Of a DNA stretch of 64,000 bases, positions 8,243-62,728 are shown piece by piece. A program made the translations under genes and the position numbers. The stretch is from the IMG/VR virus record IMGVR_UViG_3300003086_000115, one strand, 5' to 3'. How positions within the stretch are numbered: position 1 is the stretch's first letter; each line of letters opens with the position of its first letter. A model generated the notes under the pieces. The model made no database searches and was not told the DNA's origin. It saw only the letters and a program-made list of their open reading frames with translations. The DNA comes from a virus (lineage: Duplodnaviria > Caudoviricetes).

Positions 8243-9265
8243 ATGAATAACATTATATGGTTTAAACAATTTCAAACTTCAAATGTATATACAGCATGGG
8301 CTAATAGATGTTATTCTTTTACTACAAATACCTTTTATGATGCTTTTATTTCACAAGCGTATAAAGAAGATATACCAATAGTAAACAATGCAAAATTCAT
8401 TTTTAACTGTCTTAATGAAGGTTTAGGCTCTAAAGAGATTAACTTCTCGATTCAAAGTTTGCGAGACAACGGAATCGAACTTGATATTCGAGTATTGTTT
8501 AATAGTATAATTACCCAAGATTTACCATATCGATATAGGTGTTTACCTACTCATATGATAGCTCATTGCAGGTTCCTTCGGCATGTCAATAATCTAAACG
8601 TAAATTGGAAAAATATAGAAGTTAATCGATACTTTATTTGTTTAATGCGACGACCATCTGTTGGGAGATCACAGTTCGCTAAACAGTTATTAGATAGGTT
8701 TAAACAAGAGGATTTTTTGCTTAGTTGCGGATGTAGTTCGAACTACAAAGCAATAGTGAAAGATGTACAACAAGCAATACACCCTTATGAAATGCCAATT
8801 TTGATTGATGGGAAAATTGGCACGGATTTTTCACAGCACCATCATACAAATGAAGAATTTTTTAAATGTTTTATTAATATAATAGTTGAAACTAGTTCGC
8901 AAATAGACGAACAAAGTTGGAGTGAAATTTTCCTTACTGAGAAGACATTTAAAGCATTTGCGTATAGACAATTGCCTATATGGTTTGCTGTTCCTGGAAC
9001 AGTAAAAGAGGTGCGCAACTTAGGCTTTGATTTGTTTGAGGACATAATTGACCATGGATATGATAATATACAAGATCATCACACACGAATAGAGGCTGTG
9101 GTAAAGACTTTACGAAATTTTGTTGATTCTTATAGCTACGCTGATTTACAAAAGTTACGGAATGACTTATGGCCGAGAATAATGTTTAATGTATCAATGC
9201 TACAGAAACTAAATAATGAAAATGATAAGAAAAAACATCAACTTATGTTAGAGTTAGCAGAATGA
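8243..9265 (+). CDS. Glycosyltransferase-like 'FLTEKT' family protein
   Basis: NIIVET...FLTEKTFK...GFDLFEDIIDHGYD; paralogue of 11513 and 18212. Confidence 0.55.
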   Translation: MNNIIWFKQFQTSNVYTAWANRCYSFTTNTFYDAFISQAYKEDIPIVNNAKFIFNCLNEGLGSKEINFSIQSLRDNGIELDIRVLFNSIITQDLPYRYRCLPTHMIAHCRFLRHVNNLNVNWKNIEVNRYFICLMRRPSVGRSQFAKQLLDRFKQEDFLLSCGCSSNYKAIVKDVQQAIHPYEMPILIDGKIGTDFSQHHHTNEEFFKCFINIIVETSSQIDEQSWSEIFLTEKTFKAFAYRQLPIWFAVPGTVKEVRNLGFDLFEDIIDHGYDNIQDHHTRIEAVVKTLRNFVDSYSYADLQKLRNDLWPRIMFNVSMLQKLNNENDKKKHQLMLELAE

Positions 9266-10011
9266 ATTTTAATTTTTCATCATCTGAGAATAGCCACGAA
9301 CATAGCTTAGAAACCTTAAGTTTACTTTACAAGTACGATACGTTTATGGAAAGTATTGATACTGTATGTGACTTAGGTTGCGGCAGAGAAGCTCTCGATT
9401 TAGAATGGTGGGCGACATGCGAGGTAGACACTGATGAAGCACATATACCGTTAGACATTAAGTGTACAGGCATCGATTTATACGACGATATAGTTCTAGA
9501 GCATAAAAATGTTAATTATGTTAAGCAAAATTTAGAAGAACCTGTAGATCAAGTGTTTGATGTACTATGGTGTCATGATACATTTCAATACATGATAAAC
9601 CCTTTGCAAACATTAAAATATTGGAATAGTATGCTAGCTGAAAGTGGCATGCTTGTAATAATTTTACCACAGACGACTAATATTAGTTATAGTAAACAAG
9701 ACTTTACTCAACCTAATAATCATTATTTTAACTATACTATTTCTAACTTAATATATATGCTAAGTGTAAATGGGTTTGATTGTAGATCTGGGTTCTTTCA
9801 ACAAGACCTTAATACCAACTGGATAAAAGCAGTTGTGTACAAGGGAGATATTGCACCGATGAATCCGAGAGAAACATCGTGGGTGGATTTAGTTGATACT
9901 GGGTTACTACCTAATTCTGTAGTTGATAGTATTAATCGCCGCGGATATGTTAACCAACAAGAGGTAACGTTAACTTGGTTAGATAAAACCAACCAATGGT
10001 TCGGGAAATAA
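9262..10011 (+). CDS. Class I SAM-dependent methyltransferase
   Basis: VCDLGCG motif I, GIDL, FDVLWCHD, LAESGMLVI. Confidence 0.8.
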   Translation: MNFNFSSSENSHEHSLETLSLLYKYDTFMESIDTVCDLGCGREALDLEWWATCEVDTDEAHIPLDIKCTGIDLYDDIVLEHKNVNYVKQNLEEPVDQVFDVLWCHDTFQYMINPLQTLKYWNSMLAESGMLVIILPQTTNISYSKQDFTQPNNHYFNYTISNLIYMLSVNGFDCRSGFFQQDLNTNWIKAVVYKGDIAPMNPRETSWVDLVDTGLLPNSVVDSINRRGYVNQQEVTLTWLDKTNQWFGK

Positions 10012-10039
10012 ATATGCTATATAAACTAGAGGATTATAT

Positions 10040-10819
10040 ATGAATGTAGCACTAGTTACCGGAGGATTCGACCCGATACACAGCGGTCATCTTGCTTACT
10101 TTAAAGAAGCACACAAAATCGGCAGACTTGTAGTCGGTGTTAACAGCGATGAATGGTTAGCACGAAAGAAAGGCCGTGCGTTTATGCCGTTGACAGAACG
10201 TGTTGAAATATTACGTAATATCAGAGGTGTAAGTGATGTAATAGTATTCGACGATGCCGACGATACTGCTTGTGATGCTATTGCAATAACAGCACGTATG
10301 TACTATGATGCAACTATACATTTTATTAATGGCGGCGATAGAACAAAAGAAAATATTCCAGAAATGAGTTGTAACCATGTCCATAACTGGACAAATATTG
10401 AGTACCATTTTGGTGTTGGAGGAAACGATAAAAAGAATTCATCGTCATGGATACTAGAAGAATGGAAATCACCTAAAACAGAACGTACTTGGGGTTATTA
10501 TCGTGTAATACACGAAACAGATACACATAAAGTAAAAGAGCTAACAGTAGATCCCGGTAAAAGTCTAAGTTTACAAAGACATCAACATAGAAGTGAGTTT
10601 TGGTTTGTGTCAGAGGGAATAGCAACTGTTGAACAAAGTAGCCAGGATGGTCTCGACGACCTAATTAAGAAAGAATTAAATGTGTACGACTCAACTAGTA
10701 TACTAATAGATGATTGGCATAGGCTTAGTAATAATACACTTCAGCCAGTTAAAATTATCGAAATACAGTACGGTGATCAATGTGTTGAGGAAGATATAGA
10801 ACGAAAAGATTGCGACTAA
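10040..10819 (+). CDS. Cytidylyltransferase fused to mannose-6-phosphate isomerase-type cupin
   Basis: TGGFDPIHSGH (HxGH), NGGDR; C-terminal RTWGYY...LSLQRHQHRSEFW...EIQYG...EEDIER. Confidence 0.85.
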   Translation: MNVALVTGGFDPIHSGHLAYFKEAHKIGRLVVGVNSDEWLARKKGRAFMPLTERVEILRNIRGVSDVIVFDDADDTACDAIAITARMYYDATIHFINGGDRTKENIPEMSCNHVHNWTNIEYHFGVGGNDKKNSSSWILEEWKSPKTERTWGYYRVIHETDTHKVKELTVDPGKSLSLQRHQHRSEFWFVSEGIATVEQSSQDGLDDLIKKELNVYDSTSILIDDWHRLSNNTLQPVKIIEIQYGDQCVEEDIERKDCD

Positions 10820-10820
10820 A

Positions 10821-11504
10821 ATGATTAGAATGTTTATAGGGTATGACAGGGATATACCTGTTATATACCATGCGCTATGTCACAGTGTAATACGACATAG
10901 TTCAGAACCAGTATCGTTTACTCCAATAGCAAGGCATCATGTTAGTGATGTGTACACAAAGCCGACATCAGATATAGAAGCTACAGAGTTTAGTATGACC
11001 CGATTCCTTACCCCGTACCTATCTAATTATGAAGGGTGGTCTATTTTTACTGATAATGATATGATAGTTACAGCAGATATAGCTGAGCTATGGGCTCTCA
11101 GAGATGATAAGTACGCCGTAATGTGTACTAAGCATGACTACACAGTGTCAACAGCAACAAAGTTTCTAAATAGAAAACAAACAGCGTATCAGAAGAAGAA
11201 TTGGTCTAGTGTTATGATGTTTAATAATGCTAGATGCAAAGCACTAACACCTGACGTAGTAAACACAGAGTCGGGGTTATTTTTGCACCAGTTTAAGTGG
11301 TTAGAAGATGATAGTTTAATAGGTGATATACCATTAGAATGGAACTTCTTAGTAGATGAGATAGCGAAGCCAGAAACCATACCTAAACTAATACATTACA
11401 CATTGGGTGGTCCTTACTTTAACGACTATATGGATACCCAATACGCAAGCGAATGGCTTAAAGAATATAAACTAATGAATAACGCCGCACAGGTAAAAAA
11501 CTAG
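10821..11504 (+). CDS. Glycosyltransferase (GT-A, GT8-like)
   Basis: FIGYD, TEFSMTRF, DxD (DND), KNWSSVM, HYTLGGP. Confidence 0.8.
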   Translation: MIRMFIGYDRDIPVIYHALCHSVIRHSSEPVSFTPIARHHVSDVYTKPTSDIEATEFSMTRFLTPYLSNYEGWSIFTDNDMIVTADIAELWALRDDKYAVMCTKHDYTVSTATKFLNRKQTAYQKKNWSSVMMFNNARCKALTPDVVNTESGLFLHQFKWLEDDSLIGDIPLEWNFLVDEIAKPETIPKLIHYTLGGPYFNDYMDTQYASEWLKEYKLMNNAAQVKN

Positions 11505-11512
11505 ACGGTATT

Positions 11513-12502
11513 ATGATAGATTACAAGGAATACACGAATCGTCACGAAGAATGGAAGAACTTAGGACTAGATAAATTAAAGTGTGCTTTATGGTATATAG
11601 ACTATGAGATCGAATCATTTAGCGGATCGAGAATTGCACCCCATAATACTAGTCTTCATTGTATATCAATTGATTATTTAAAAACCAAACAATGTTGGAA
11701 TATTAGTCCTTATATCTTTATAGTGGATGTAGAAGGGAATTCTTCGCATTGGGTAAATTATAAAGATACTATATATGTATGGGATGCCTCTTTCTTAGAT
11801 AGTAAACAGTTTACTCCTTATTTTTGGTGGATGAACGAAACTGCTAGAGTAGAGAAAAGTGTAAATTACGCAAGCCGATTAATTCCGTGTAATAATAATT
11901 CAAAAACATTTGACTGTTTGTTAGGGAGCAAACACACCCATAGAGATTACATCTACAATGCGTTAAAGGATAATCCAGCTGTCTTGCTCACCTATTTCGG
12001 GGCTGATAATAAGTGGATTAAAGGTAACGAAAATGATAATTTTGTTGAGTGGGATTCATCTGAACAAAGAATCTACAAAGGTAAGAACGTTACAGTTAAT
12101 ATTAGTTGCTTTATTCCTTGGCAGATTTACAATAAGACTTGGTTTAGTATTATTGCTGAGACTGATCCTAATAGAACATTTCTTACAGAAAAGACAGCAA
12201 AGCCAATAATGGCTAGAAGGTTGTTTATTACAATTGGTGCTAAAGGAATGCTGAAAGGGTTAAGAGGTATAGGATACAAAACGTTTGATACTGTAATAGA
12301 TGAGAGTTATGATGAAGAAGACGATGACCAAAAAAGATGGGATATGGCTATTCAGCAAGTTAGGTACCTATGTACTAAAGATCTGTGTCTAATAACTAAG
12401 GAAATAGAAGATATTACATTGCATAATAAGAAATGTTTAATCGAGTATGCTGAAGATAACCATCTTTCGAATCAGATTAGGGAAATAGTAGGAACAAGTT
12501 GA
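11513..12502 (+). CDS. Glycosyltransferase-like 'FLTEKT' family protein
   Basis: SIIAET...FLTEKTAKP...GYKTFDTVIDESYD. Confidence 0.55.
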   Translation: MIDYKEYTNRHEEWKNLGLDKLKCALWYIDYEIESFSGSRIAPHNTSLHCISIDYLKTKQCWNISPYIFIVDVEGNSSHWVNYKDTIYVWDASFLDSKQFTPYFWWMNETARVEKSVNYASRLIPCNNNSKTFDCLLGSKHTHRDYIYNALKDNPAVLLTYFGADNKWIKGNENDNFVEWDSSEQRIYKGKNVTVNISCFIPWQIYNKTWFSIIAETDPNRTFLTEKTAKPIMARRLFITIGAKGMLKGLRGIGYKTFDTVIDESYDEEDDDQKRWDMAIQQVRYLCTKDLCLITKEIEDITLHNKKCLIEYAEDNHLSNQIREIVGTS

Positions 12503-12527
12503 CACACTTCTTCACCGATGTTATAAT
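12499..12527 (+). promoter_or_regulatory. Sigma70-type early promoter
   Basis: TTGACA-17nt-TATAAT, perfect consensus. Confidence 0.85.
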
Positions 12528-12558
12528 AGTGGTACTTTAACAATAAAGGGAGTTAGGG

Positions 12559-13560
12559 ATGAAGGTAAAGGTATTCAATGGCCATTACGGCAAAAAATCA
12601 GTAAACGGTGTTACATTCGAAGCACTAAGTGAACCAGCGCACGGTAAAGATGGATATTACATTAGTGTAAAGCCAAATAAAACAGTCGGCAATCTAGCAT
12701 GTAAGAGAATTAGAATTAAACTTACTAGCATAGATGATGTTAAGCACTTAGGTAAAAAGCCTACAGTAAACGAATATAAAGAAACAGATTCTCAAGTTAC
12801 TGAGCGCATCACAGAGCGGTTTGATATCTTAACAGAAATGACTAAGGCCGCTATTGCAACAGACGTTAAAGCAATGATTGTATCAGGTCCTCCGGGTATT
12901 GGTAAGTCGTACGGCGTAGAAAAAGAATTAGAAAAAGCGAGCATGTTTGATGTAATTGCAAATACTGCCCCAAAATACGAAGTAGTTAAAGGCGCAATGA
13001 CTGCACTAGGTTTATACTCAAAACTATTTCAACATTCGGGAAACGGTAATGTAATTGTATTTGATGACTGTGATGTTGTCCTACAAGACGATTTGAGTTT
13101 AAACTTACTTAAAGCGGCGCTAGACAGCGGTAGAAAACGTACTGTTTGTTGGAATGCAGATAGTAACTTACTGCGTAGAGAAGGAATTCCAAACAGTTTT
13201 GATTTTATGGGATCAGTGATCTTTATTACTAACCTGAAGTTTGAAAATGTTAAGAGTAAGAAATTACAAGATCATTTAGCGGCATTACAGAGTAGATGTC
13301 ACTACTTAGATTTAACATTAGATACTATGCGTGATAAACACTTGCGCGTTAAACAGATTTATGCAACAGGTGAACTGTTTAGGAATTATAGATTTGGTGA
13401 AGAAATTGGAGATGAAATAATTAAGTTCATGGGAGATAATAAAGATGAACTACGTGAGATGAGTCTAAGGATGGCATTAAAGATTGCAGACTTAGTCTTA
13501 GTTAGTAAAGACAGATGGAAAGTACTTGCTAAGAACACGTGTATGAAAAATAGTTTTTAA
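12559..13560 (+). CDS. AAA+ family ATPase
   Basis: Walker A GPPGIGKS, Walker B VIVFDDCD, FITN sensor, ALQSR arginine finger. Confidence 0.85.
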   Translation: MKVKVFNGHYGKKSVNGVTFEALSEPAHGKDGYYISVKPNKTVGNLACKRIRIKLTSIDDVKHLGKKPTVNEYKETDSQVTERITERFDILTEMTKAAIATDVKAMIVSGPPGIGKSYGVEKELEKASMFDVIANTAPKYEVVKGAMTALGLYSKLFQHSGNGNVIVFDDCDVVLQDDLSLNLLKAALDSGRKRTVCWNADSNLLRREGIPNSFDFMGSVIFITNLKFENVKSKKLQDHLAALQSRCHYLDLTLDTMRDKHLRVKQIYATGELFRNYRFGEEIGDEIIKFMGDNKDELREMSLRMALKIADLVLVSKDRWKVLAKNTCMKNSF

Positions 13561-13567
13561 AGAGTTC

Positions 13568-13667
13568 GTTAGATGCTTGTGTTGCTCCCTTGAGACACTC
13601 CCTAAATAAGCATTTAACAACACCCGGGTTACAAGACATGTTTCCTTTATTGTTAGTCTTGTAACCC
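13568..13667 (+). ncRNA. Tandem 12-bp hairpins with anti-SD loops (candidate regulatory RNA)
   Basis: Stems 13568-79/13607-18 (two G-U pairs favour + strand) and 13626-37/13656-67 (perfect); loops contain CTCCCT and TTCCTTTATTGTTA. Confidence 0.55.
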
Positions 13668-13691
13668 ACCCTATTAAAGAGAAGAGGTAAT

Positions 13692-15149
13692 GTGAAAGCA
13701 ATTATAATTATACAAGACGAAGTTAACTGTGCTGTAAAAGGCGTAGAGTTAGACGTTCGTAAGAAACTTGTAGGTATGTTTAAATATGACATCCCAGGAG
13801 CAAGATATATGCCTGCTTATCGTCTAGGACGTTGGGACGGGACTGTATCTTTTTTCAACTTAGGCGGCACTACGTTTGTTAATTTACTGCCTAAAATTAT
13901 TCCTGTTCTAATTGCTAATCATTATGAAATTGAATTAGATGATAAACGAACACAGACGACACCGATAGATATAGCACCTATTGATGATAGTACATTTCGA
14001 CATATTAAATGGCCCGAGAAGCATGTAGTTGCAGGCGAGCCAATTATTCTACGTGATTATCAAGTTGAGATTGTTAATAATTTCTTGGAAAATCCGCAAT
14101 GCTTACAAGAAATAGCTACAGGTGCAGGTAAGACATTAGTTACAGCGGCACTAAGTGAACGTGCAGAAGCATACGGCAGAAGTATAGTAATTGTACCTAA
14201 CAAGAGTTTAGTAGTACAAACAGAAGCAGACTATATTAACATGCAATTAGATGTAGGTGTGTATTTCGGCGATAGAAAAGACATAGGCAAAACACATACT
14301 ATTTGTACATGGCAAAGTCTTAACATGTTAATGAAGAATACTAAGAAAGGTGTAGCAGAGATTACAATACACGACTTCTTAGAAGATGTCATATGTGTTA
14401 TTGTTGATGAAGTGCATAGTGCTAAAGCAGATGCACTTAAAACATTACTAACAGGACCAATGCGTAACATTCCCTTACGTTGGGGACTAACAGGTACAGT
14501 ACCTAAAGAAGAGTTTGAGTTTGCTTCATTAAGAGTAAGCCTAGGCGAAGTTATTAATAAGGTATCAGCAAGTGAATTGCAAGACAAAGGTGTGCTTGCT
14601 AATTGTCATGTGAATATTGTGCAGTTACTTGATCACGCTCAGCACAGTAACTATCAAAGTGAGTTGAAGTACTTATTAAGTGACCCTGATCGTTTGGATA
14701 CGATGGCAAATCTTGTACGTAAGGCTAATGAAACTGGCAACACTCTTGTGCTTGTAGACCGTGTACAAGCAGGCAAAGATTTAGTAGAACGCTTAGGAGA
14801 AGATGCTGTGTTTGTTAGTGGTGCAACTAAAGGAAAAGACAGACAAGAGCAGTATGATGAAGTTGCAGATTCAAGTAACAAGATTATTGTAGCAACGTAC
14901 GGTGTTGCGGCAGTAGGTATTAATATCCCTAGGATATTTAACTTAATGCTTATTGAACCCGGTAAGTCTTTTGTGCGAGTAATACAGTCTATAGGACGAG
15001 GTATTCGTAAAGCACAAGATAAAGACGAAGTACAAATATGGGATATTACTAGTAGCTGTAAGTTTGCTAAACGGCATTTAACTAAACGTAAGAAATTCTA
15101 TAAAGAAGCAGAGTACCCTTTCTCGTTAGAGAAATTAGAATGGAAGTAA
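13692..15149 (+). CDS. uvsW: SF2 DNA/RNA helicase UvsW
   Basis: LRDYQ, ATGAGKT, DEVH, GLTGT, QSIGRGIR. Confidence 0.9.
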   Translation: MKAIIIIQDEVNCAVKGVELDVRKKLVGMFKYDIPGARYMPAYRLGRWDGTVSFFNLGGTTFVNLLPKIIPVLIANHYEIELDDKRTQTTPIDIAPIDDSTFRHIKWPEKHVVAGEPIILRDYQVEIVNNFLENPQCLQEIATGAGKTLVTAALSERAEAYGRSIVIVPNKSLVVQTEADYINMQLDVGVYFGDRKDIGKTHTICTWQSLNMLMKNTKKGVAEITIHDFLEDVICVIVDEVHSAKADALKTLLTGPMRNIPLRWGLTGTVPKEEFEFASLRVSLGEVINKVSASELQDKGVLANCHVNIVQLLDHAQHSNYQSELKYLLSDPDRLDTMANLVRKANETGNTLVLVDRVQAGKDLVERLGEDAVFVSGATKGKDRQEQYDEVADSSNKIIVATYGVAAVGINIPRIFNLMLIEPGKSFVRVIQSIGRGIRKAQDKDEVQIWDITSSCKFAKRHLTKRKKFYKEAEYPFSLEKLEWK

Positions 15150-16168
15150 AAAACTTTATTGATTTTCAAGGTGGTGCACATGGTAACTACCTTATGTTTA
15201 TTTGTAATAAGTTTCTATCAAATGTTCCTTCAAACGTTATGGATTTTCTACCGTTCGATGAACATGGATCGTCACACGCTGGTCGTAAGAGGTTAGATTA
15301 CGAACAATACAAAGAGTTTAAATGGGTTCATTCGATTACTTTACCTTTTGCAGAATTTACCAATATGGTAGACGGTAATATTATTCACGTACACATAGAT
15401 ACAGATGATTTACTATTGTTAAACCAAGTTAGTCTAGTGCGAGCTGGTAATCATAACATCACAGATTTAGAAACTAATACATATAACAAACTTAATATAC
15501 CTGATTATAAATGGGTGCTTGATAATATCATAGAATCCTTTTTCTTTAATCAAGTAAAGGAGAGTTATGATGCAGTTAGTGATCCTTTATGGCTAGAAGT
15601 TAATACATTAGAAGAATATAATAGTTTACCAGAGCATATTTTAGAAGAGTGTAAGTCTGTACACGATTTAAAAGTTTTTGATCTATCTGAAGAGTCGCCG
15701 GATTGTCCTAAACACATTCTTAGAGAGTTTTTTAAAATAGGGTTTAAGTACCCAGCATCGCACGGGTTTATGCAAATACAGGACCAAACAACAGAACTAG
15801 AGGTCTATAAGAATAATCGTGTTTTTTATTTTGCATACAATGCGTTCTATGATTTAGACTTGTTCACAACTGAGATAACAAGATTAGCTGAGTTCTTAGA
15901 TTTTCCGTTTTCTGTATCTAGTGAGTTTAATGAAATTCACCAAATGTTTTTAGAAAAACAACCATTTATAGACTCTAAGAAAAGATGCGATGCAATAGTA
16001 GATAGCATATTGCATCAGAACGAAACGTTGGACTTAAATGTTACATTGCTAGAAGAAAGTTATATTAATGCACAATTAGAATTGCTAACTAACAAAGAGA
16101 TGCCAACTAATCAAGATCAATATTTTAATACAATACAGGACATACAAGAGTATCTTAAAAATGCATAA
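15140..16168 (+). CDS. Hypothetical protein (P-loop-like N-terminus, DPxW motif)
   Basis: IDFQGGAHGNYL; YDAVSDPLW...LPEHILEEC resembles the 5610 protein. Confidence 0.5.
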   Translation: MEVKNFIDFQGGAHGNYLMFICNKFLSNVPSNVMDFLPFDEHGSSHAGRKRLDYEQYKEFKWVHSITLPFAEFTNMVDGNIIHVHIDTDDLLLLNQVSLVRAGNHNITDLETNTYNKLNIPDYKWVLDNIIESFFFNQVKESYDAVSDPLWLEVNTLEEYNSLPEHILEECKSVHDLKVFDLSEESPDCPKHILREFFKIGFKYPASHGFMQIQDQTTELEVYKNNRVFYFAYNAFYDLDLFTTEITRLAEFLDFPFSVSSEFNEIHQMFLEKQPFIDSKKRCDAIVDSILHQNETLDLNVTLLEESYINAQLELLTNKEMPTNQDQYFNTIQDIQEYLKNA

Positions 16169-16176
16169 TTAGTATT

Positions 16177-16524
16177 ATGGTAAATTGCATAATTATTATT
16201 ATGCATTTAGAAAGATACTACGGACATTTAGCGGACGTAAGCGGAGAATATCATAAGGTCGAACTAACGCCTTTTGGTTTAGAGGTAATAGTGTGTTACT
16301 CCGGTTGTTGCCGAATCTTAATGAACCACGCAAGAGATAGGTTAGAAAAGCCCGGAATGAAATGGGCAACAGATAACTGTCTTGACCAAACGGTGTATAT
16401 TAAAATGAAAGAGTATATCGGAGAACATGGGCATAATCTGTTGCATTACAGGATCATAACTTACATGAAACCACGGGACGTTACATTCTGGAAGTTAACG
16501 TATCCTAATAGCCTTGCATTTTAA
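16177..16524 (+). CDS. Hypothetical protein (possible distant member of the C-terminal FxLKW family)
   Basis: Ends MKPRDVTFWKLTYP; true start uncertain. Confidence 0.4.
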   Translation: MVNCIIIIMHLERYYGHLADVSGEYHKVELTPFGLEVIVCYSGCCRILMNHARDRLEKPGMKWATDNCLDQTVYIKMKEYIGEHGHNLLHYRIITYMKPRDVTFWKLTYPNSLAF

Positions 16525-16593
16525 AATCACCAAAGACAGATTAAAGACATAGTTATTGGTTAGCTTTAGGTTATCTTCATATATAATACACTT

Positions 16594-17094
16594 ATGAAAA
16601 TACACACACTTGAAGACACAGCATACGAATTAGATGAATTACCTGAGAAGATAGATGATTTAAGATTTTCTATTTTTGACAACAGCAATCCTAAGGACCC
16701 AGACTATTTTTATATTCCTTTAATCTTTTTAGAAAGCTTTACTGCACCTGCGCTTGTTTTAAGAATCGGCGATAAAGTTCTTAAAATGCCTATGGACTGG
16801 CATCTATTAATAGGCGAATACGAAACAGGCGATTTAGAAGCATTGCAATTAACAAGTATAAATGATAGAGATTTCAAAGCGTTTGAATTTAACAGTCTAA
16901 GTGGTTACAGTGCTGACTTTTTACCTGTAGAAGTATTAGATGTATATAACGAAGTACAATGGTATAATCCTAAGTTAAAAAACGGGCAGTATTTAGCCGT
17001 GCCGATAGATGAAGGTTCTAAACCTAGAGTAGTGTATTTTATTAAAGATGTGTCTAGAAATTGTCAAATAGTAGATTACTCACAGGCCTGGTAA
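16594..17094 (+). CDS. Hypothetical phage protein
   Basis: Clean ORF heading a coupled replication block; TATAAT 6 nt before ATG. Confidence 0.6.
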   Translation: MKIHTLEDTAYELDELPEKIDDLRFSIFDNSNPKDPDYFYIPLIFLESFTAPALVLRIGDKVLKMPMDWHLLIGEYETGDLEALQLTSINDRDFKAFEFNSLSGYSADFLPVEVLDVYNEVQWYNPKLKNGQYLAVPIDEGSKPRVVYFIKDVSRNCQIVDYSQAW

Positions 17095-17541
17095 ATGGCA
17101 CAAAAGTTAGATATATTTAAAGTATTACGAGCAGTTGATAAGAAGGATTATGCATTCTACGACACGTTAACAGACGAAGAGAAGAAAGGTTTTACGGCAT
17201 TTTTAGGGTTAAAGTGGGGTGCAAGCGTAGAAGGTAACCAAACGATACAGCACTACTACCTAGCAAGTATGAACCATCATGCAAACAAACACTTGTTCAA
17301 CATTAGTAAACACCCTAAGTTACAGTGGCTAACATTAGCGGCAGGCAGTCCTAATTTTGGACAGCAACGACATAATTGGATAAAAGGTAAAAAGAAAATA
17401 TCTACTAAAAAACAAGACGATATTAAGAAAGAATTGATAATGTTATATCCATCCTACAAAGAAGATGAGATAGAATTGCTAAGTACAATGGTTACAAAAA
17501 AAGAGATAAAGCAGTATGCTAAAGACAGCGGTCAAGTCTAA
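17095..17541 (+). CDS. Possible clamp-loader small subunit (gp62-like)
   Basis: Size and helical pattern, MN...HPKLQWL...RHNWIK, in replication block; weak recognition. Confidence 0.4.
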   Translation: MAQKLDIFKVLRAVDKKDYAFYDTLTDEEKKGFTAFLGLKWGASVEGNQTIQHYYLASMNHHANKHLFNISKHPKLQWLTLAAGSPNFGQQRHNWIKGKKKISTKKQDDIKKELIMLYPSYKEDEIELLSTMVTKKEIKQYAKDSGQV

Positions 17542-18211
17542 GCTTGAATGTAGGTTTTGCGGCAAAGTTTACAAGCGCGAGAAAGCATTTGTAGTACATG
17601 TTTGCGAGAAGAGAAAGAGATGGGAAGAACGAAAGGAAAAAGGCGTAAGACTAGGATACAATACATTCTTAAAGTTTTACAAATATACGCACGTCGCAGG
17701 AAAAGAAAAAAGCCATGAAGAGTTTATACATAGTCCATACTATAAAGCGTTTGTTAAGTTTGGTAGGTACTGTGTAGACATTAATGCTATAGGTGTTAAT
17801 AGGTTTGCTGATTATGTTATACAGAGTGGCAGAAAGCTAGACTATTGGTGTAGTGATGTAGTATACACAGAGCATTTAGAGAAGCTACTAAGAGTAGAGA
17901 ATCCAACAGATGCATTAGCAAGAGCCATACAGCATGGCATTAAATGGGGAGAAGTGAATAATGCAAATGAATATGACATGTTACGATATGGTAAGACTAA
18001 TGAAGTCTGCTATTCAATAGATAATGGGCATATTAGTCCTTGGGTTGTATATAGTTGCGATAGTGGTGTTGCTTATTTAAGTAGCTTAACTACAGAGCAA
18101 ACACGTATAATATGGGATAAGATCAATCCAGACATTTGGCAACCTAAATTTGCAAAGTACAGAGAAGAAAAGGAATTTCTAGAAAAAATGCTAAAAGAGG
18201 CAGGCTGGTAA
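17516..18211 (+). CDS. Hypothetical protein with N-terminal zinc finger
   Basis: CRFCGKVYKREKAFVVHVC. Confidence 0.55.
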   Translation: MLKTAVKSKLECRFCGKVYKREKAFVVHVCEKRKRWEERKEKGVRLGYNTFLKFYKYTHVAGKEKSHEEFIHSPYYKAFVKFGRYCVDINAIGVNRFADYVIQSGRKLDYWCSDVVYTEHLEKLLRVENPTDALARAIQHGIKWGEVNNANEYDMLRYGKTNEVCYSIDNGHISPWVVYSCDSGVAYLSSLTTEQTRIIWDKINPDIWQPKFAKYREEKEFLEKMLKEAGW

Positions 18212-19267
18212 GTGCTAAAAATTAATAGTAAAGGAAGTTCGGTACATGGATACCTAGAGCAGTATAACGTTTGGGTAGATTGGTATAATTTTTATGTAGA
18301 AAAGCATTCTCCTGTTGTTAGTTTGAGTCATAATGGGATTCCAGTTCTTCAATACTTTGATATAGAAAATATTAATAGTGCAACAAGTTCGATTGTATTC
18401 ATTGATTGCTGTACTGAAGGACTTCATTCGATAGAATACTTTAACCAGTATAGGAAAGATCATTATTATGTTATATTCAGTAATGGCTGGTGGGATCAGA
18501 ATAAAATAAAATTAGGTATAGAGTATGATCTAGTTTGGTATCCTTTTTTCTTATATGATATGAATAATGTGTATTATAATCCGTATAAATTTGCATTTTA
18601 TTTAGACAAAGCTTATTCTGATGACTATCCAAAGCCCTTTATATTTGTTTCTACAACCGGAAATACTAGACCAGAACGAGATTTATTGATTGATAGTATT
18701 AAAGCGAATATAGAGTATGATAATTTTATATTAAGATATAGCGGTGTTGATTTTAAAGCTGATTCTAAAGAATATGATATAATTGAGTTTGAAGTTGGTG
18801 AATTTGATCCTTATACAGCTGTCTTAAAAAAGCATTACCATACGGTTAGTCAATCTGTGCCTATTGATATGTATAACCGAGCGTATTTTAATTTAGTTGT
18901 AGAAACAGATCTAGATCTTCAAGATTGTTTTTTCTTGACAGAAAAAACAATCAAGGCAATCTATACAGGGATACCATTTATAATAGTAAGTACACCATAT
19001 TTTTTAAAACATTTAAGAGAGCTAGGATTTTGCACATATAATGATTTATGGGACGAATCGTACGACACTGAATTAGATTTTAATAAAAGAGTTGATAAAA
19101 TTGTGAAATTATGCAATGAATTGCAGTATTTTGATTGGAAAGGCAATAAAGATAAGTTAGCATTAGTGCGTTACAAAAACTTTGAAAATGCGCATCGACT
19201 TAATAGGTTAGCAGATACCGGATTCAAAAAGTTCGAAGAAATAATAAAGAGAATAGAGACAAGTTAG
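18212..19267 (+). CDS. Glycosyltransferase-like 'FLTEKT' family protein
   Basis: NLVVET...FLTEKTIK...PFI...GFCTYNDLWDESYD. Confidence 0.55.
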   Translation: MLKINSKGSSVHGYLEQYNVWVDWYNFYVEKHSPVVSLSHNGIPVLQYFDIENINSATSSIVFIDCCTEGLHSIEYFNQYRKDHYYVIFSNGWWDQNKIKLGIEYDLVWYPFFLYDMNNVYYNPYKFAFYLDKAYSDDYPKPFIFVSTTGNTRPERDLLIDSIKANIEYDNFILRYSGVDFKADSKEYDIIEFEVGEFDPYTAVLKKHYHTVSQSVPIDMYNRAYFNLVVETDLDLQDCFFLTEKTIKAIYTGIPFIIVSTPYFLKHLRELGFCTYNDLWDESYDTELDFNKRVDKIVKLCNELQYFDWKGNKDKLALVRYKNFENAHRLNRLADTGFKKFEEIIKRIETS

Positions 19268-19269
19268 TG

Positions 19270-19378
19270 GAAGAGATACGCTATAAAAATTTTAAATGCT
19301 ATGCGACTTAATAAAGTAGCGAGTAAGAGCTTTAAAGAGTTTGAAAATGCATTAAGGGGAATAGAGAGTGCGAATTGA
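19270..19378 (+). pseudogene. 3' relic of a paralogue/allele of the 18212 gene
   Basis: Reads IRYKNF/(frameshift)/NAMRLNKVASKSFKEFENALRGIESAN*, versus VRYKNFENAHRLNRLADTGFKKFEEIIKRIETS* directly upstream. Confidence 0.7.
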
Positions 19379-19952
19379 TGCTGATATTGATATTGACTTT
19401 CCAGATAGAGAAGCAATACTTAAATTAATAAAACATACGCCAGCAAGGCAAGAGTCTAATGTAGAATCTAAACAGCATAATAGTGGTGTTTACGTCACGG
19501 ATATACCGTATGATCCTGTGCATAAATGTGCAAATATAGACTATAAAGAAGCAGAAAACCGTAGTTACTTTAAGATAGACTTCTTAAATGTATCGGTGTA
19601 TACTTACATTAGAGATCAAGCGCATTATAATAAGTTGCTAGAAAAAGAACCAAATTGGAGCAAGTTGCAAAGTAAAGAGTTTTGCGAGCAACTAATACAC
19701 ATTAGCGATCATTACAGCTTGGTACAGAAAATGAAGCCAGATAGTATTACTAGGATGGCTATGTTCTTAGCTATTATAAGACCAGCTAAACGATATTTAA
19801 TAGGCAAAGACTGGAAAGATATTGCTAAGGAAGTTTGGATCAAGCCTAACGATGATTCTTATTACTTTAAACAAGCACACGCTATCTCGTACTCAACATT
19901 AGTAGCGTTACACATGAATATTATTGATCAGGATTTCTTACAAGAGTTATAG
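19368..19952 (+). CDS. Miniature DNA polymerase III alpha (DnaE)-like protein
   Basis: ADIDIDF (PDxDxD), HNSGVY, FKIDFLN, IIRP, FKQAHAISY. Confidence 0.75.
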   Translation: MRIDADIDIDFPDREAILKLIKHTPARQESNVESKQHNSGVYVTDIPYDPVHKCANIDYKEAENRSYFKIDFLNVSVYTYIRDQAHYNKLLEKEPNWSKLQSKEFCEQLIHISDHYSLVQKMKPDSITRMAMFLAIIRPAKRYLIGKDWKDIAKEVWIKPNDDSYYFKQAHAISYSTLVALHMNIIDQDFLQEL

Positions 19953-20301
19953 ATTTTCTTTTAGATCGTTTATGAGTGATGTTATCTAAGCTAGTGCATG
20001 GACCACTTAATAACTCTACAGTTTTGTTAGTAAACGTTAGTCTATAACTCTTAAATTGCGCGAACTCTTTCTTTAAGAATAAGTTTATAGGTACGCTTCT
20101 ATTTGCTTCCCACCACCATGTTTCCCCTAATTCTAAGAACAGTTGTTTCTTTTTTTGGTCTTGTATATCACCAAAGTTATACATAGTAGTAAAGAGCTTG
20201 TCCTGATTCATTACTATTCCTATATATTCAACCCCTGCATAACGAACTATTGACAAAAATGGATATTTTTCGGATACCTTTTGAAATAGTTCATTTTCCA
20301 T
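19921..20301 (-). CDS. Hypothetical phage protein
   Basis: Fills the gap between + genes; KYPFLS...YIGIV...GETWWWE; TATAAATA on - strand just upstream (~20332-20339). Confidence 0.65.
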   Translation of the reverse strand: MENELFQKVSEKYPFLSIVRYAGVEYIGIVMNQDKLFTTMYNFGDIQDQKKKQLFLELGETWWWEANRSVPINLFLKKEFAQFKSYRLTFTNKTVELLSGPCTSLDNITHKRSKRKSITLVRNPDQ

Positions 20302-20313
20302 ATAAATATACAC

Positions 20314-21132
20314 ATGTATTCAACTAAAGTCTATTTATACAACCAACACAAACGGGTCATTATAGTCGACCCGGATTTAGAATTAAACAGCATCTATCGA
20401 GCGAGGTATTCAGAAGTGTATTCTTATAACTTAAAAGCACATAAAGGAGTAGATACTACTTTACTATTCCAATTTCTTAACCAAGATCAAAAACCTATTA
20501 ATTTAGGTAGCACAGTATTTACTTTTAGGATATTATCCAGAGAAGGAGACGAGCTATTGTTAAGTAAAGATCTAACAATAACAAACGTAGAGAAGGGCAA
20601 AGCGAAAATAGTACTATCGGGAAGTGACTTAGATAACATTGAGAGTCAACGAGCACACTATAGTATAGAGCGTAGCTTTAATTCGTTATTTGATCCTACG
20701 TTTATGGACGATGATGCTAATGCTAGAGGCAATTTAGAGATATTAGATAGCGTGTATCCTAAATTTGTTGATAGTGTTAATGTAACAGTACCGGATTTAT
20801 TCAATTTTAGTAGACCACCAAGGTCTGATCCAATAGTTACTAGCCAAGTAGAAACCAAAGATCAGTTATTGCATACGTTCCAAGTAGATATAACTGACTT
20901 CGTAGGAGCATTACAACTACAAGGCTCAGTAGTAGGCGGTTCTAACCCGTTAGAATGGTATGATATTGTACCTGATGTAGGAAGTTCTGCAACAATTTTC
21001 AGCACGACAACGACTAGCAATAACTATTATAATATAACAGGAACACATCCTTTTTTAAGAATAAAAATAGAAGGAACACCAACAAGTATATCACCAATCG
21101 AGGGCACAATTGATAAAATACTATACAGATAA
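20314..21132 (+). CDS. Probable virion structural protein (beta-rich)
   Basis: Late promoter TATAAATA 20301-20308; FQFLNQDQKPINL, ends IDKILYR. Confidence 0.5.
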   Translation: MYSTKVYLYNQHKRVIIVDPDLELNSIYRARYSEVYSYNLKAHKGVDTTLLFQFLNQDQKPINLGSTVFTFRILSREGDELLLSKDLTITNVEKGKAKIVLSGSDLDNIESQRAHYSIERSFNSLFDPTFMDDDANARGNLEILDSVYPKFVDSVNVTVPDLFNFSRPPRSDPIVTSQVETKDQLLHTFQVDITDFVGALQLQGSVVGGSNPLEWYDIVPDVGSSATIFSTTTTSNNYYNITGTHPFLRIKIEGTPTSISPIEGTIDKILYR

Positions 21133-21138
21133 ACTTTA

Positions 21139-21849
21139 ATGTCAGCAAACAATAAATTTAGTGGCGCTAGCGTCATAGCTAAACAACATTTAAAACTAAT
21201 TGATGTTAAAGCAATAACAGAAGCACAACAATCATTCTTTGATAATTACGATAGCGGGAAATCGCAGTTGTTATTAGGCTTTCCGGGAACAGGTAAAACA
21301 TTCTTAAGTTTATACAAAGCATTCCATGAGATAATCAACGGTAAGACAGAAGTATCAAGGATTATTATTGTTAGAAGTGCAGTTCCAACACGCGACATAG
21401 GCTTCTTACCAGGCGATTTAAACGAAAAGTCACAGATATATGAACTTCCATACAAACGAATATGCTCTGAGCTGTTCGGACGCGACGATGCATACGAGAT
21501 ATTAGTAGCAAAAGGTGTAATACAGTTTATGATTACATCTTATGTACGCGGTATTACGTTAACTAATTGTATTGTAATAATGGATGAATTTCAAAACTGT
21601 ACAGCACACGAAGCAGACTCGGTATTAACTAGACTAGGCAGAGATTCCAGAGCAATGTTCTGTGGTGATTTTATGCAAACTGACTTTACTAAATTAAAAG
21701 ACATGGATATCGGTAAGTTTGTTGAAGTGTTAGAATCGATGGTCAACTGGTTTAGTATAAATGAATTTGGTGTAGAAGATATTGTACGATCCGGGCTAGT
21801 TAAAGCATACATCCAAGCTAAGTATTTAAAGCATCAAGACGGTTATTAG
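21139..21849 (+). CDS. phoH: PhoH-family ATPase
   Basis: GFPGTGKT, RSAVPTRDIGFLPG, RGIT, DEFQN, GDFMQTD, DIVRSGLV. Confidence 0.92.
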   Translation: MSANNKFSGASVIAKQHLKLIDVKAITEAQQSFFDNYDSGKSQLLLGFPGTGKTFLSLYKAFHEIINGKTEVSRIIIVRSAVPTRDIGFLPGDLNEKSQIYELPYKRICSELFGRDDAYEILVAKGVIQFMITSYVRGITLTNCIVIMDEFQNCTAHEADSVLTRLGRDSRAMFCGDFMQTDFTKLKDMDIGKFVEVLESMVNWFSINEFGVEDIVRSGLVKAYIQAKYLKHQDGY

Positions 21850-22124
21850 TGAAGAATGATACAAGTTTAAAATTTGATGAGGTTACTGAAGAGAATACGC
21901 AAGCATTTAAAGACAAATTTGCTACTGATGTCGAACATACTAGTGAATGTATAACTGAAACAGTAGAAGCTATGGGAGAGTTAATAGCAAAAGTATGTAA
22001 AAGTCAACAATCAGATTTACAGAGCGTATTAGCTTCGATAACTATAGAAACATTTGATGAACATCTTAGAGAAATATTAGCAGGGAAGAAATGCAATTGC
22101 AGGAAAACGAAACACCTGAATTAA
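21849..22124 (+). CDS. Hypothetical protein
   Basis: Coupled ORF. Confidence 0.5.
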   Translation: MKNDTSLKFDEVTEENTQAFKDKFATDVEHTSECITETVEAMGELIAKVCKSQQSDLQSVLASITIETFDEHLREILAGKKCNCRKTKHLN

Positions 22125-22819
22125 AGAATTTAGTATCGTTTGGTTGCAGTTGGGCGTTCGGTGATGAACTATTAGATCCAGACTTAGAAAAGAAAAATAT
22201 TCCTAGTCATTACACACAGAATGACGAATATCGATTAAGTCGTTGCTACACAGGAATACTTGCTAAACAGTATAACCTAACTCAAGAAAATCTAGCATTC
22301 CCTGGCTCAAGTTTACAGTCGATGCAGTGGAATCTTATGTGGTGGTTAGATAATCATAATGAAGAATACATTAAAGACTCTATTTTGCTAGTAGGACTAA
22401 CAGATGAAAGTAGGATTAGCTGGTATGACCCTAACCATGACGTTGGCAGAGATGACCCTGATTGGAATAGATACTTGCATGCACAATGGTTAGATTGTGC
22501 AGGACCTAACGTACCCGATGGATGGCATAAGCTACACAAGTACCATACAGCAATGTCTGCTTGTAACGAATTAGATAAATTACGCTATAAAACAACAGTT
22601 AGAATGTTTGATGGCGTATCAGCAAGTTACAATATACCTGTAGTGCAGTTTAATTTACTAGCTAGAACATTTATAAAATGTAATACCTTGCATAACTTGC
22701 AGATTCGTGATGTACTTAATGAAGAGAACCAGTATTTTCCAGTTTTTAAACCAGGCGGACACCCAAATGAACTCGGACATGTAATAATTGCAGAAACACT
22801 TGATGAGTATTTAGAATGA
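22091..22819 (+). CDS. SGNH/GDSL-like hydrolase or acyltransferase
   Basis: FGCSWAFG block I, NLAFPGSS block II, GHPNELGH block V. Confidence 0.7.
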   Translation: MQLQENETPELKNLVSFGCSWAFGDELLDPDLEKKNIPSHYTQNDEYRLSRCYTGILAKQYNLTQENLAFPGSSLQSMQWNLMWWLDNHNEEYIKDSILLVGLTDESRISWYDPNHDVGRDDPDWNRYLHAQWLDCAGPNVPDGWHKLHKYHTAMSACNELDKLRYKTTVRMFDGVSASYNIPVVQFNLLARTFIKCNTLHNLQIRDVLNEENQYFPVFKPGGHPNELGHVIIAETLDEYLE

Positions 22820-50234: not shown

Positions 50235-50263
50235 ACATGTATTATAACAATAAGGAGAGCGAC

Positions 50264-53939: not shown

Positions 53940-54179
53940 ATGAAAATGAAATCAATTAAAGAATTTAGTGAAAAAACACAAATTAACGCATTTGGTTGTT
54001 TAGAAGCAGACTTAGATTCAGCATTAGACCGTGTGCTATTTTCAGATCCTGTAATGGTTGCAATGAGTGATATGTCAAATGCACAAGAGTTAATGCGAAT
54101 GGGTGAAACGGAAGAAGCTCGTCAGCTTATTAACAGAGCGAAATATTATCTATCAACTGTATTAGAGGAAAGAGTATAA
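53940..54179 (+). CDS. Hypothetical early protein
   Basis: Directly after promoter; SDMSNAQELM...ARQLINRAKY. Confidence 0.6.
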   Translation: MKMKSIKEFSEKTQINAFGCLEADLDSALDRVLFSDPVMVAMSDMSNAQELMRMGETEEARQLINRAKYYLSTVLEERV

Positions 54180-58952: not shown

Positions 58953-58977
58953 AAGGGGGCTATAAGTCCCCTTTTTT
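58953..58977. terminator. Terminator hairpin at a convergent gene junction
   Basis: AAGGGGGC-TATAA-GTCCCCTTTTTT. Confidence 0.75.
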
Positions 58978-60153
58978 ATTGGGTAAATCTTCAAATTTAA
59001 TTATTGACGTTTTATCGTACCATTTTATATAATCTAATAACTCAGCATGCAGTTTATCTGAAGGAACAGTATCGTTGATATATCTGATTAGTTCTTTATT
59101 TTTTGTCTTTTTCTTTTCCTCTGCTAACGCATCAGCAGATAATGCTGATAAAGACAGATAATTAGGGTTGCTAACTAAGGTAAGACCAATTGGTAAGTCA
59201 TGTTTTTTGCACCAATCTTCTAAGTCATCGAACCACCCTATGTTTAATGCATGTATAGTGCAAGTTATATAAACTAGCACATTTGACTGCTTTACTAGCG
59301 ATAGTACGTTTTCCTCAATAATGTTCCACTTACTGTGTTTGCGAATATACTCACCGTGAACACCTATGGCATCAATGCTTACTATAACAATTAGCTCTTT
59401 AAATCCTTTTAGCCGGTTGGTATTTTCTATAAGATCAAAGCTACCATTTGTAGTAAATGCTAATCTTATTTTTTCTTTTTTAGCACTAGGAATTTTTTCT
59501 AACATAGACATTAGCTTTTCGTCCATGAATGGCTCTCCACCACGTATTCGTAAGAATGTAATAGGTTGATGCAATATAGTGTTACGAAGGTGATCTCTTG
59601 CTCGTTCATTATTAGACAGTTCTTTTATATTATCAAGGTATAACGGGTCTTGAGCTAACATATTTTTTACTACTGTTGCTGATTGGTCTTTTTTCCACGT
59701 GCTGTGAATTTTAGAGCTATCATCCGGAAAACACATAATACATTCGAAATTACAAAGGTTAGATACCATGCAATCTGCAGTAACTATAAAATCATTGCGG
59801 TAGTCTTTTTTCTTATTAAAATATAGTTTTAACCACGTATTTGAATAATCATCAGATCCTGCTATAGATTTATTATATATTTGTCTTATGCTTCGTATGT
59901 TATATTTCTCTGCTTTCTGACATTTATAACATTCTGACGGCATCTTGTCATTTAACTCTTTGCGCAAGTACTGTAAATATTCGCTGTTTATCCAATCTTC
60001 GTATGTATCTGATGATAAGTTGTAATTAGTCTTACCTTGAAATTGGGACTGACGTGTGTCGATGCTACAACAGACATCAAGTTTATTTCGGTTATCGTTC
60101 CTTGCACTGAACCAGGCAGATGCGCAGAAAGTTTTGCTAGATAAGGGATTCAT
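58960..60153 (-). CDS. Radical SAM protein with N-terminal SPASM/Twitch-like domain
   Basis: FCASAW...VCC...ECYKC, then CNFECIMC, RGGEP, TTNGS, VSIDA; TAAATA 5 nt before ATG. Confidence 0.85.
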   Translation of the reverse strand: MNPLSSKTFCASAWFSARNDNRNKLDVCCSIDTRQSQFQGKTNYNLSSDTYEDWINSEYLQYLRKELNDKMPSECYKCQKAEKYNIRSIRQIYNKSIAGSDDYSNTWLKLYFNKKKDYRNDFIVTADCMVSNLCNFECIMCFPDDSSKIHSTWKKDQSATVVKNMLAQDPLYLDNIKELSNNERARDHLRNTILHQPITFLRIRGGEPFMDEKLMSMLEKIPSAKKEKIRLAFTTNGSFDLIENTNRLKGFKELIVIVSIDAIGVHGEYIRKHSKWNIIEENVLSLVKQSNVLVYITCTIHALNIGWFDDLEDWCKKHDLPIGLTLVSNPNYLSLSALSADALAEEKKKTKNKELIRYINDTVPSDKLHAELLDYIKWYDKTSIIKFEDLPNKKGDL

Positions 60154-62472: not shown

Positions 62473-62549
62473 GCCCCTTTAGCTCAGTTGGTTAGAGCAC
62501 CCCGCTCATAACGGGTAGGCCCACAGTTCAAGTCTGTGAAGGGGCACCA
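62473..62549 (+). tRNA. tRNA-CAT, probably Ile2 (lysidine type) rather than Met
   Basis: Cloverleaf, anticodon CAT, C4-G69, C5-G68, C29-G41, A73, encoded CCA. Confidence 0.85.
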
Positions 62550-62554
62550 GTAAC

Positions 62555-62630
62555 GCCGAAGTAGCACAGTTGGTAGTGCAACTGATTTGTAATCAGTAGG
62601 TCGCCAGTTCGAGTCCGGCCTTCGGCACCA
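62555..62630 (+). tRNA. tRNA-Thr(TGT)
   Basis: Cloverleaf, ACTGA-TT TGT AA-TCAGT, TTCGAGT, CCA. Confidence 0.93.
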
Positions 62631-62636
62631 AATTAA

Positions 62637-62728
62637 GGAAGATTGACAGAGCGGCTTATCGTGCTCCCCTGCTAAGGGAGTGTAGTTCTTAAAGACTACC
62701 ATTGGTTCAAATCCAATATCTTCCGCCA
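62637..62728 (+). tRNA. tRNA-Ser(GCT)
   Basis: Long variable arm, CTCCC-CT GCT AA-GGGAG, G73, CCA. Confidence 0.93.

Follow-up and report, generated by a model that had tools for sequence, protein, structure and literature searches.

A conserved RNA element between an ATPase and a helicase gene of uncultured T4-like phages carries motifs complementary to the ATPase Shine-Dalgarno sequence

The 131-nt spacer between an AAA-type ATPase gene and a helicase gene of an uncultured T4-like phage encodes a conserved, independently folding RNA element of the + strand, and unpaired C-rich motifs of this element are specifically complementary to the atypical Shine-Dalgarno (SD) sequence of the ATPase gene. 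The element belongs to a new, covariation-supported family of structured RNAs in uncultured T4-like phages of marine and hydrothermal-vent metagenomes. As for its role, we tentatively favour, with a probability of about 0.4, repression of ATPase translation, the element acting as an icaR-like 3'-to-5' anti-SD fold-back or as a processed RNA. From sequence we infer that the motifs pair with the SD in vivo and that translation is thereby repressed, and likewise the mode of action, in cis or in trans.

The hairpins of the ATPase-helicase spacer

The features of the locus are given below in the coordinates of the window, i.e. the whole stretch of 64,000 nucleotides analysed here.

12499..12527, + strand: sigma70-type early promoter of the ATPase gene (TTGACA, 17 nt, TATAAT, with TG)
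12534..12561, + strand: ATPase leader and translation initiation region (TIR), the proposed target, with TAACAATAAAGG (12538-12549), the SD AAGGGAG (12546-12552), TTAGGGA (12553-12559) and ATG (12559-12561)
12559..13560, + strand: AAA-type ATPase gene, 333 aa, phrog_1250, function unknown
13559..13678, + strand: whole conserved structured RNA element (match to covariance model R1, 77.6 bits)
13568..13618, + strand: domain 1, with P1 (13568-13580/13606-13618) enclosing a weak P2-like stem
13579-13583 with 13594-13598, + strand: weak P2-like stem, whose loop carries CUCCCUU (13585-13591)
13598-13605, + strand: 3' bulge of domain 1, invariant CUCCCUAA
13626..13667, + strand: domain 2 (P4), a perfect 12-bp stem with an 18-nt loop (13638-13655) that has the U/C-rich UUCCUUUAUUGUU
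13664..13675, + strand: conserved tail ACCCACCCTATT, nearly invariant columns, the first 4 nt in P4 and the rest single-stranded
13692..15149, + strand: UvsW/RadD-like superfamily 2 helicase gene, GTG start, directly downstream of the element

A preliminary description of this DNA had reported two hairpins, and both are present. In hairpin 2, GGGTTACAAGAC (13626-13637) pairs perfectly with GTCTTGTAACCC (13656-13667) over 12 bp, as established by direct reading and with a repeat finder, which leaves the 18-nt loop ATGTTTCCTTTATTGTTA at 13638-13655. In hairpin 1, positions 13568-13580 are paired with 13606-13618, G-U pairs included. The region folds better than shuffled sequences on both strands (z about -3.5). 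The two motifs described in hairpin 1, CTCCCTT and TCCCTAA, are also where they were said to be: CTCCCTT (13585-13591) is complementary to AAGGGAG (12546-12552) and CTCCCTAA (13598-13605) to TTAGGGA (12553-12559), both in the ATPase leader. The minimum free energy fold places CUCCCUU in a loop and CUCCCUAA in a bulge, leaving both unpaired. CTCCC occurs four times on the + strand of the window, twice within the element, against 16 occurrences on the other strand. Outside the RNA element and one tRNA, the sense strand shows strong avoidance of anti-SD-like pentamers. We considered P4 as an intrinsic terminator and rejected this assignment, given its 18-nt loop and the lack of a U tract, P4 being followed by ACCCACCCTATTAAAG.

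A conserved, covarying RNA family

A search with the ATPase protein yielded 80 related viral contigs, and relatives with 63-93% ATPase protein identity carry a recognisably homologous spacer. The set of homologues, assembled from pattern scans and protein-guided look-ups, comprises at least 16 distinct related metagenomic phage sequences. A pattern scan of metagenomes contained at least 6 distinct true elements, two of them new to the family (L128 and L206), most of its matches being due to chance. No match to the exact 42-nt hairpin was found in viral contigs; the structure is shared, the sequence is not. The closest relatives (L218-L223, ATPases 85-87% identical) include a hydrothermal-vent contig (ERR1679396), JGI samples and a Logan run, and the vent origin among them hints at the habitat of the window phage.

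From 5' to 3', the members of the family are built of P1, P2, the 3' bulge, an optional P3, a linker ending in CGGG, P4 and the tail. P1 comprises 12-13 bp and P2 is a 7-bp hairpin inside P1 with a CUCCCUA loop, while P4 has 10-12 bp, a variable loop of 15-25 nt and the conserved tail ACC(C/U)UAUU after it. P3 is missing in the window, in L004/L221 and in L218.

Of the 27 pairs found by RNAalifold, 17 have compensatory changes. When 14 sequences were aligned to the model, the 38 pairs of the structure were intact in 96.8% of cells, and changes on both sides were seen in 20 of them; none of 500 shuffles of this alignment reached the observed pairing, and slid registers were 31-48% paired. Covariation is strong in stems P1, P3 and P4, with eight covarying pairs each in P3 and P4 (for P4, eight out of ten pairs), and a search for further covarying helices or pseudoknots revealed none beyond these three stems. 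P2 has a U-G pair in 10 sequences that would be C-A on the opposite strand, and the U-G/G-U pairs of the element fit + strand RNA only. Because the stems covary and U-G pairs occur, the element must be regarded as a feature of the RNA and of the + strand, in agreement with the earlier proposal that its G-U pairs favour this strand.

The single-stranded parts are conserved as well. CUCCCUAA is invariant across the family while the stems drift, the UCCC-containing P2 loop is kept in all members but L004 and L006, and nucleotides of the bulge, the linker and the tail are conserved. With the covariance model, each locus gave a single copy, and the window has no other. No family of Rfam 15 matched at its gathering score, or at E <= 10 for the 301-nt region, where the scores are at chance level (12.6-14.9 bits versus gathering scores of 40-80); the Rfam scan of the window matched only three tRNAs. 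Even if its function proves to be another than the one favoured here, this RNA family is a candidate for Rfam.

Complementarity to the ATPase Shine-Dalgarno sequence

No other of the roughly 90 genes of the window has an SD like the AGGGAG of the ATPase gene, the usual form being A(A)GGAG. All element-bearing relatives of the main clade with a readable leader have UAGGGAG(UA) before the ATPase gene, and the close relatives L218 and L221 have AAGGGAG and AUAGGGAG, respectively. This (U/A)AGGGAG type of ATPase SD is confined to the element-bearing clade; relatives without the element have ordinary ATPase SDs (AGGAG, AAGGGG or AAGGAA). The carriers are all of one clade, so that the association of SD type with the element counts as a single evolutionary event. 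In 11 of the 12 lineages with a readable leader, the lineage's own ATPase SD is complemented by the CUCCCU motifs of hairpin 1, the exception being L084, so that a C-rich motif past the stop codon that complements the SD of the same gene, as in icaR, is found in all of them but one. The 3'UTR fold-back autoregulation envisaged in the preliminary description is consistent with this complementarity, L084 excepted.

In 112 kb of relatives there are 12 copies of TAGGGAG, of which 11 are the ATPase SD, and CUCCCUA is present one to three times per locus, of which one or two are in the element. From their sequences, CUCCCUA and UAGGGAG would form seven Watson-Crick pairs, where the canonical 16S tail would need a G-U. 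Predicted duplexes of the P2-loop and bulge segments with their own ATPase TIR reach -9 to -19 kcal/mol, which 0-4 of 90 background TIRs match. In the window, the ATPase TIR ranks first, second and second of 91 for the three unpaired motifs. It is also the best site along the whole ATPase mRNA in eight of nine homologues.

Whether loop and SD co-vary is ambiguous. L221 has CUCCU in its P2 loop and AGGAG as its second leader motif, the window CUCCCU and AGGGA(G), a difference suggestive of co-variation. The P2 loop may pair with motif 1 or motif 2, and neither register comes out best throughout the three close lineages; L006 and L007 have P2-loop changes without compensation. Partition-function folding of full-length mRNAs predicted SD-element pairing in all nine homologues; the controls were lower for L225 and L221, whereas in the window reversed or shuffled elements pair with the SD as well. 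We do not count this folding as evidence because the window controls are equally high. Relatives also have a potential leader hairpin, CCCUACA..UGUAGGG, which is probably spurious since its 5' arm would be located at or before the likely transcription start.

The P4 loop

The window has just two exact copies of TAACAATAAAGG, one in the ATPase leader (12538-12549, +) and the other at 13644-13655 (-). The P4 loop thus matches the leader as had been noted before, with 12 Watson-Crick pairs in a row and 16 when G-U pairs are included. When one mismatch is allowed, TAACAATAAAGG has 5 sites versus 0.92 expected, and 5 were reached in one of 100 shuffles. The L218 loop, AUACCCCCUUUAUUGUUA, forms 13 Watson-Crick pairs with the same leader, and in L221 the pairing of the P4 loop with the leader is not collinear. 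In seven other relatives the ATPase TIR ranks an unremarkable 9th to 67th of 90 for their own P4 loop. Across the family, this loop keeps the generic motif UUCCUUUU(U)GUU. The pairing of the hairpin-2 loop with the leader that had been put forward is therefore extensive in no more than the window and L218, and the P4 loop is not the conserved core of the system. It may add affinity in the subclade of the window.

Against the TIRs of the window, the P4 loop reaches -12 kcal/mol or better at six, compared with 1.3 +/- 1.4 for shuffled loops, and 4 of 200 shuffled loops were as good. Early TIRs that pair well with it are those of the ORFs at 53940, 62808, 53022 and 53454; the loop had been said to match these early leaders and one at 50245, which is not among the good matches. 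At seven main-clade loci, P4 loops did not pair with neighbouring TIRs above the level of shuffled loops (24-85 of 100 as good), so the excess over shuffled controls holds for the window and not for neighbouring genes in its relatives. AUUGUUA in the P4 loop resembles what we take to be the SELEX site of T4 RegA, and a Pfam search of the ten ORFs downstream of the locus (16177-22819) gave no RegA-like match.

Relatives that break or replace the arrangement

Relatives with ATPase identities of about 57% and below have a canonical terminator at the position of the element, and a sigma70 promoter follows it. Examples are found in L013-L077 (e.g. L066:5023-5160), with an intrinsic terminator and a TTGACA/TATAAT promoter where the clade has the element. 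This exchange looks like the replacement of one module by another.

L007 and L084 have a gene inserted between the ATPase gene and the element, which therefore stays beside the helicase gene and not the ATPase gene. It is always located 20-70 nt upstream of the helicase start, even with a gene separating it from the ATPase gene. The inserted gene (L007:5021-5828; L084:2897-3685) codes for a protein of ~265 aa and lies exactly between the ATPase stop codon and the element. The protein begins with MNILV(T/V)GCSMTYG and is SGNH/GDSL-like by appearance.

In L084 the element is intact and the ATPase leader is unrelated, with an AAGGAA SD, a GTG start and only -5.5 kcal/mol of complementarity. The region 5' of this ATPase gene (L084:1790-1915) comprises a terminator, a TTGACT-17-TATAAT promoter, the AAGGAA SD and the probable GTG start, which suggests recombination at the 5' end of the gene. 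It follows from L084 that SD pairing is not the sole reason for conservation of the element, unless this phage is a recent recombinant.

Discussion

It is tempting to speculate that the element regulates the ATPase gene from the far end of its message. It would be transcribed as a 3' untranslated part of the early ATPase message, which would run on into the helicase gene. Stems P1, P2, P4 and, where present, P3 would form a scaffold that holds the two CUCCCU(A) motifs and the U/C-rich P4 loop single-stranded. The CUCCCU(A) motifs are Watson-Crick complements of the atypical (U/A)AGGGAG SD, to which the window adds complementarity to the neighbouring UUAGGGA and to the A-rich leader. After its own synthesis at the 3' end of the message, the element might pair with the ATPase TIR, either in cis by folding back or in trans, on sister transcripts after processing. 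Such pairing would block binding of the 30S subunit and confine ATPase synthesis to an early burst, and the duplex could perhaps become the target of a double-stranded RNase.

The closest known system is the icaR mRNA of Staphylococcus aureus, in which UCCCCUG in the 3'UTR pairs with the SD UAGGGGG, ribosomes are blocked and RNase III is recruited (PMC3868564). In both, a C-rich anti-SD downstream of the stop codon matches the SD of the same gene (CUCCCUA/UAGGGAG here, UCCCCUG/UAGGGGG in icaR), and the proposed outcome, here from sequence alone, is the same, namely a block of ribosome loading with possible cleavage of the duplex. Unlike that of icaR, the phage motif is duplicated and carried by a conserved multi-stem scaffold, which resides in the intergenic spacer of a polycistronic message rather than in a terminated 3'UTR, and one phage relative, L084, lacks the complementary SD. 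Fold-back inhibition is also exemplified by hok mRNA of the hok/Sok system, whose 3' end pairs with the 5' region (fbi/tac) to make it translationally inert (PMC9841398). Pairing between the 3' end of a full-length mRNA and its 5' region is likewise proposed here; in contrast with hok, the phage element lacks a toxin ORF, an antisense partner and any logic of 3' trimming, and it would pair directly with the SD.

Other readings of the element start from its position between two genes. One of them, which we regard as possible but on the unlikely side, is that of an RNA processing or stability module replacing the terminator and promoter of distant relatives, which occupy this exact position. P1/P2 would then perhaps be a protective 3' hairpin for the ATPase message and P4 a protective 5' hairpin for the helicase message, RNase III or RNase E might cleave in the conserved asymmetric bulge, and the C-rich motifs would be recognition sites for a nuclease or another protein, the SD match being secondary. 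T7 R sites are phage RNase III processing hairpins between cistrons. Like them, the element has a helix of roughly 20 bp (P1 + P2) broken by an asymmetric internal loop, without a terminator between the genes: the clade has neither a terminator-like site nor a strong + strand promoter in the interval corresponding to 13440-14065. The persistence of the element in L084 without a complementary SD, and next to the helicase gene after the upstream gene insertion, also speaks for such a module. However, stabilising hairpins need no invariant single-stranded CUCCCUAA or conserved loop motif, T7 R sites have nothing equivalent to the invariant C-rich motifs or to the second and third hairpins, and the near-exclusive heptamer match between CUCCCUA and the ATPase SD would be a coincidence. 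The constant location upstream of the helicase start, kept when the element is parted from the ATPase gene, is what a regulator in the helicase 5'UTR would show as well; such a regulator would control helicase translation by binding a small ligand or a protein of phage or host origin. The weak or absent helicase SD and AU-rich leaders of most relatives and the conserved nucleotides in bulges, linkers and tail would be in keeping with it. We nevertheless consider it unlikely, as the spacing and sequence between element and start vary, small ORFs intervene in L007 and L008, there is no conserved alternative pairing with the helicase TIR, the searches gave no pseudoknot or extra covarying helix, and no riboswitch or leader of Rfam matched.

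The element might instead act in trans on many messages, as a small RNA or as a mimic of the 16S 3' end. Early or host mRNAs translated from an SD would be silenced as part of an early-to-late switch, whereas nearly leaderless late mRNAs would be spared. Small RNAs of Gram-positive bacteria with UCCC motifs or C-rich loops, such as RsaE and other Rsa RNAs, the hairpins of RNAIII, LhrC and 6C (PMC2790875, PMC4132741, PMC6486639), share with the element several unpaired UCCC-type motifs able to pair with SD regions. The three unpaired C/U-rich motifs of the element, in loops and bulges, recall those RNAs (PMC2790875, PMC4132741), the P4 loop beats shuffled loops on the window TIRs, and NTAAATA is located 5-8 nt before the ATG of many late genes. 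Yet each UCCC small RNA has a gene of its own, with promoter and terminator, and many targets, whereas pattern scans gave no terminator-like site in 9000-18000 and no strong + strand promoter beside the element, which is present in a single copy per genome segment. Its CUCCCUA is tuned to one unusual SD with GGGAG and not to the common AGGAG SDs of the window, and the loops of relatives match neighbouring TIRs like shuffled loops. We thus regard this reading as quite improbable, and the global early-to-late switch and the host targets put forward in the preliminary description are supported by none of the tests. A variant that we find very doubtful is a multi-site mimic of the 16S rRNA 3' tail, a timer RNA released from the ATPase-helicase message as an RNA-only early-to-late translational switch; its bulge GCCUCCCUAA and tail CACCUUAUU resemble CACCUCCUUA, and it would titrate the G-rich SDs of selected early (or host) mRNAs, favouring near-leaderless late messages. 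That the conserved feature is not an RNA at all, being the ribosome binding site and start of a small minus-strand ORF (MSCNPG...) or a DNA element (for instance a late promoter, an origin or an inverted repeat bound by a protein), is scarcely credible. The loop does read as an SD followed by ATG on the minus strand, TAAATA is present at 13603, and TAGGGAG/CTCCCTA inverted repeats flank the ATPase gene. Against this, the genes lie on the + strand and the G-U/U-G pairs fit + strand RNA alone. The minus-strand ORF, which had been named as the case that would overturn the RNA reading, is excluded because it is not conserved: it has 36, 37, 20, 33, 11 or 1 codons or is absent, with no conserved sequence. 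As for TAAATA at 13603, suggested earlier as the start of a late RNA, it is part of the 3' strand of P1 and reads TAAGTA in 4 of 16 sequences, and since this change is compensated in its P1 partner, a conserved late promoter is unlikely there. A T4-type late promoter (TATAAATA-like) at this site was also rejected on the grounds that no ATG follows and the core is unconserved.

The phage regulatory RNAs known to us are few, and most of those from T4-like phages serve as protein operators. If repression of the ATPase gene by fold-back proves true, the element would be the first conserved phage 3'-to-5' anti-SD autoregulator known to us, within a literature that we did not search systematically. 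It would also show how one gene may acquire an SD variant of its own (GGGAG) with an equally private anti-SD to match, and so escape competition from the generic anti-SD of the ribosome.

Genomic setting and neighbouring genes

All long ORFs of the 64-kb window are on the + strand except one (58960-60153). The nucleotide identity of cultured phages to the window phage is at most about 69%, confined to a helicase motif. In a promoter pattern scan, the ATPase promoter at 12499-12527 matched the sigma70 consensus perfectly (12 of 12 positions), and strong promoters precede the ATPase gene in relatives as well. The ATPase family is present in 1308 phage records, T4-like coliphages among them; searches of PDB and NCBIfam for the identity of the protein gave no useful match. 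Homologues in the cultured phages PA5oct, Citrobacter Ci1 and Cronobacter VP8 (records H22, H29, H30 and H36) are labelled 'thioredoxin', a name apparently transferred in error from an adjacent gene.

In a Pfam scan of the ten ORFs downstream of the locus (16177-22819), nine had no significant match; a weak, sub-threshold match to BppU_N was obtained for one ORF. A PhoH-like ATPase gene, of a type typical of marine phages, is located at 21139-21849 (PF02562, E = 1e-40). The three tRNA genes are clustered at 62473-62725 on the + strand. Many genes of the window (at 125, 1142, 20303, 27716, 28403, 39435, 42497 and others) have (N)TAAATA 5-8 nt before the ATG and no SD, which suggests that these sites are T4-like late promoters yielding leaderless or near-leaderless late mRNAs.
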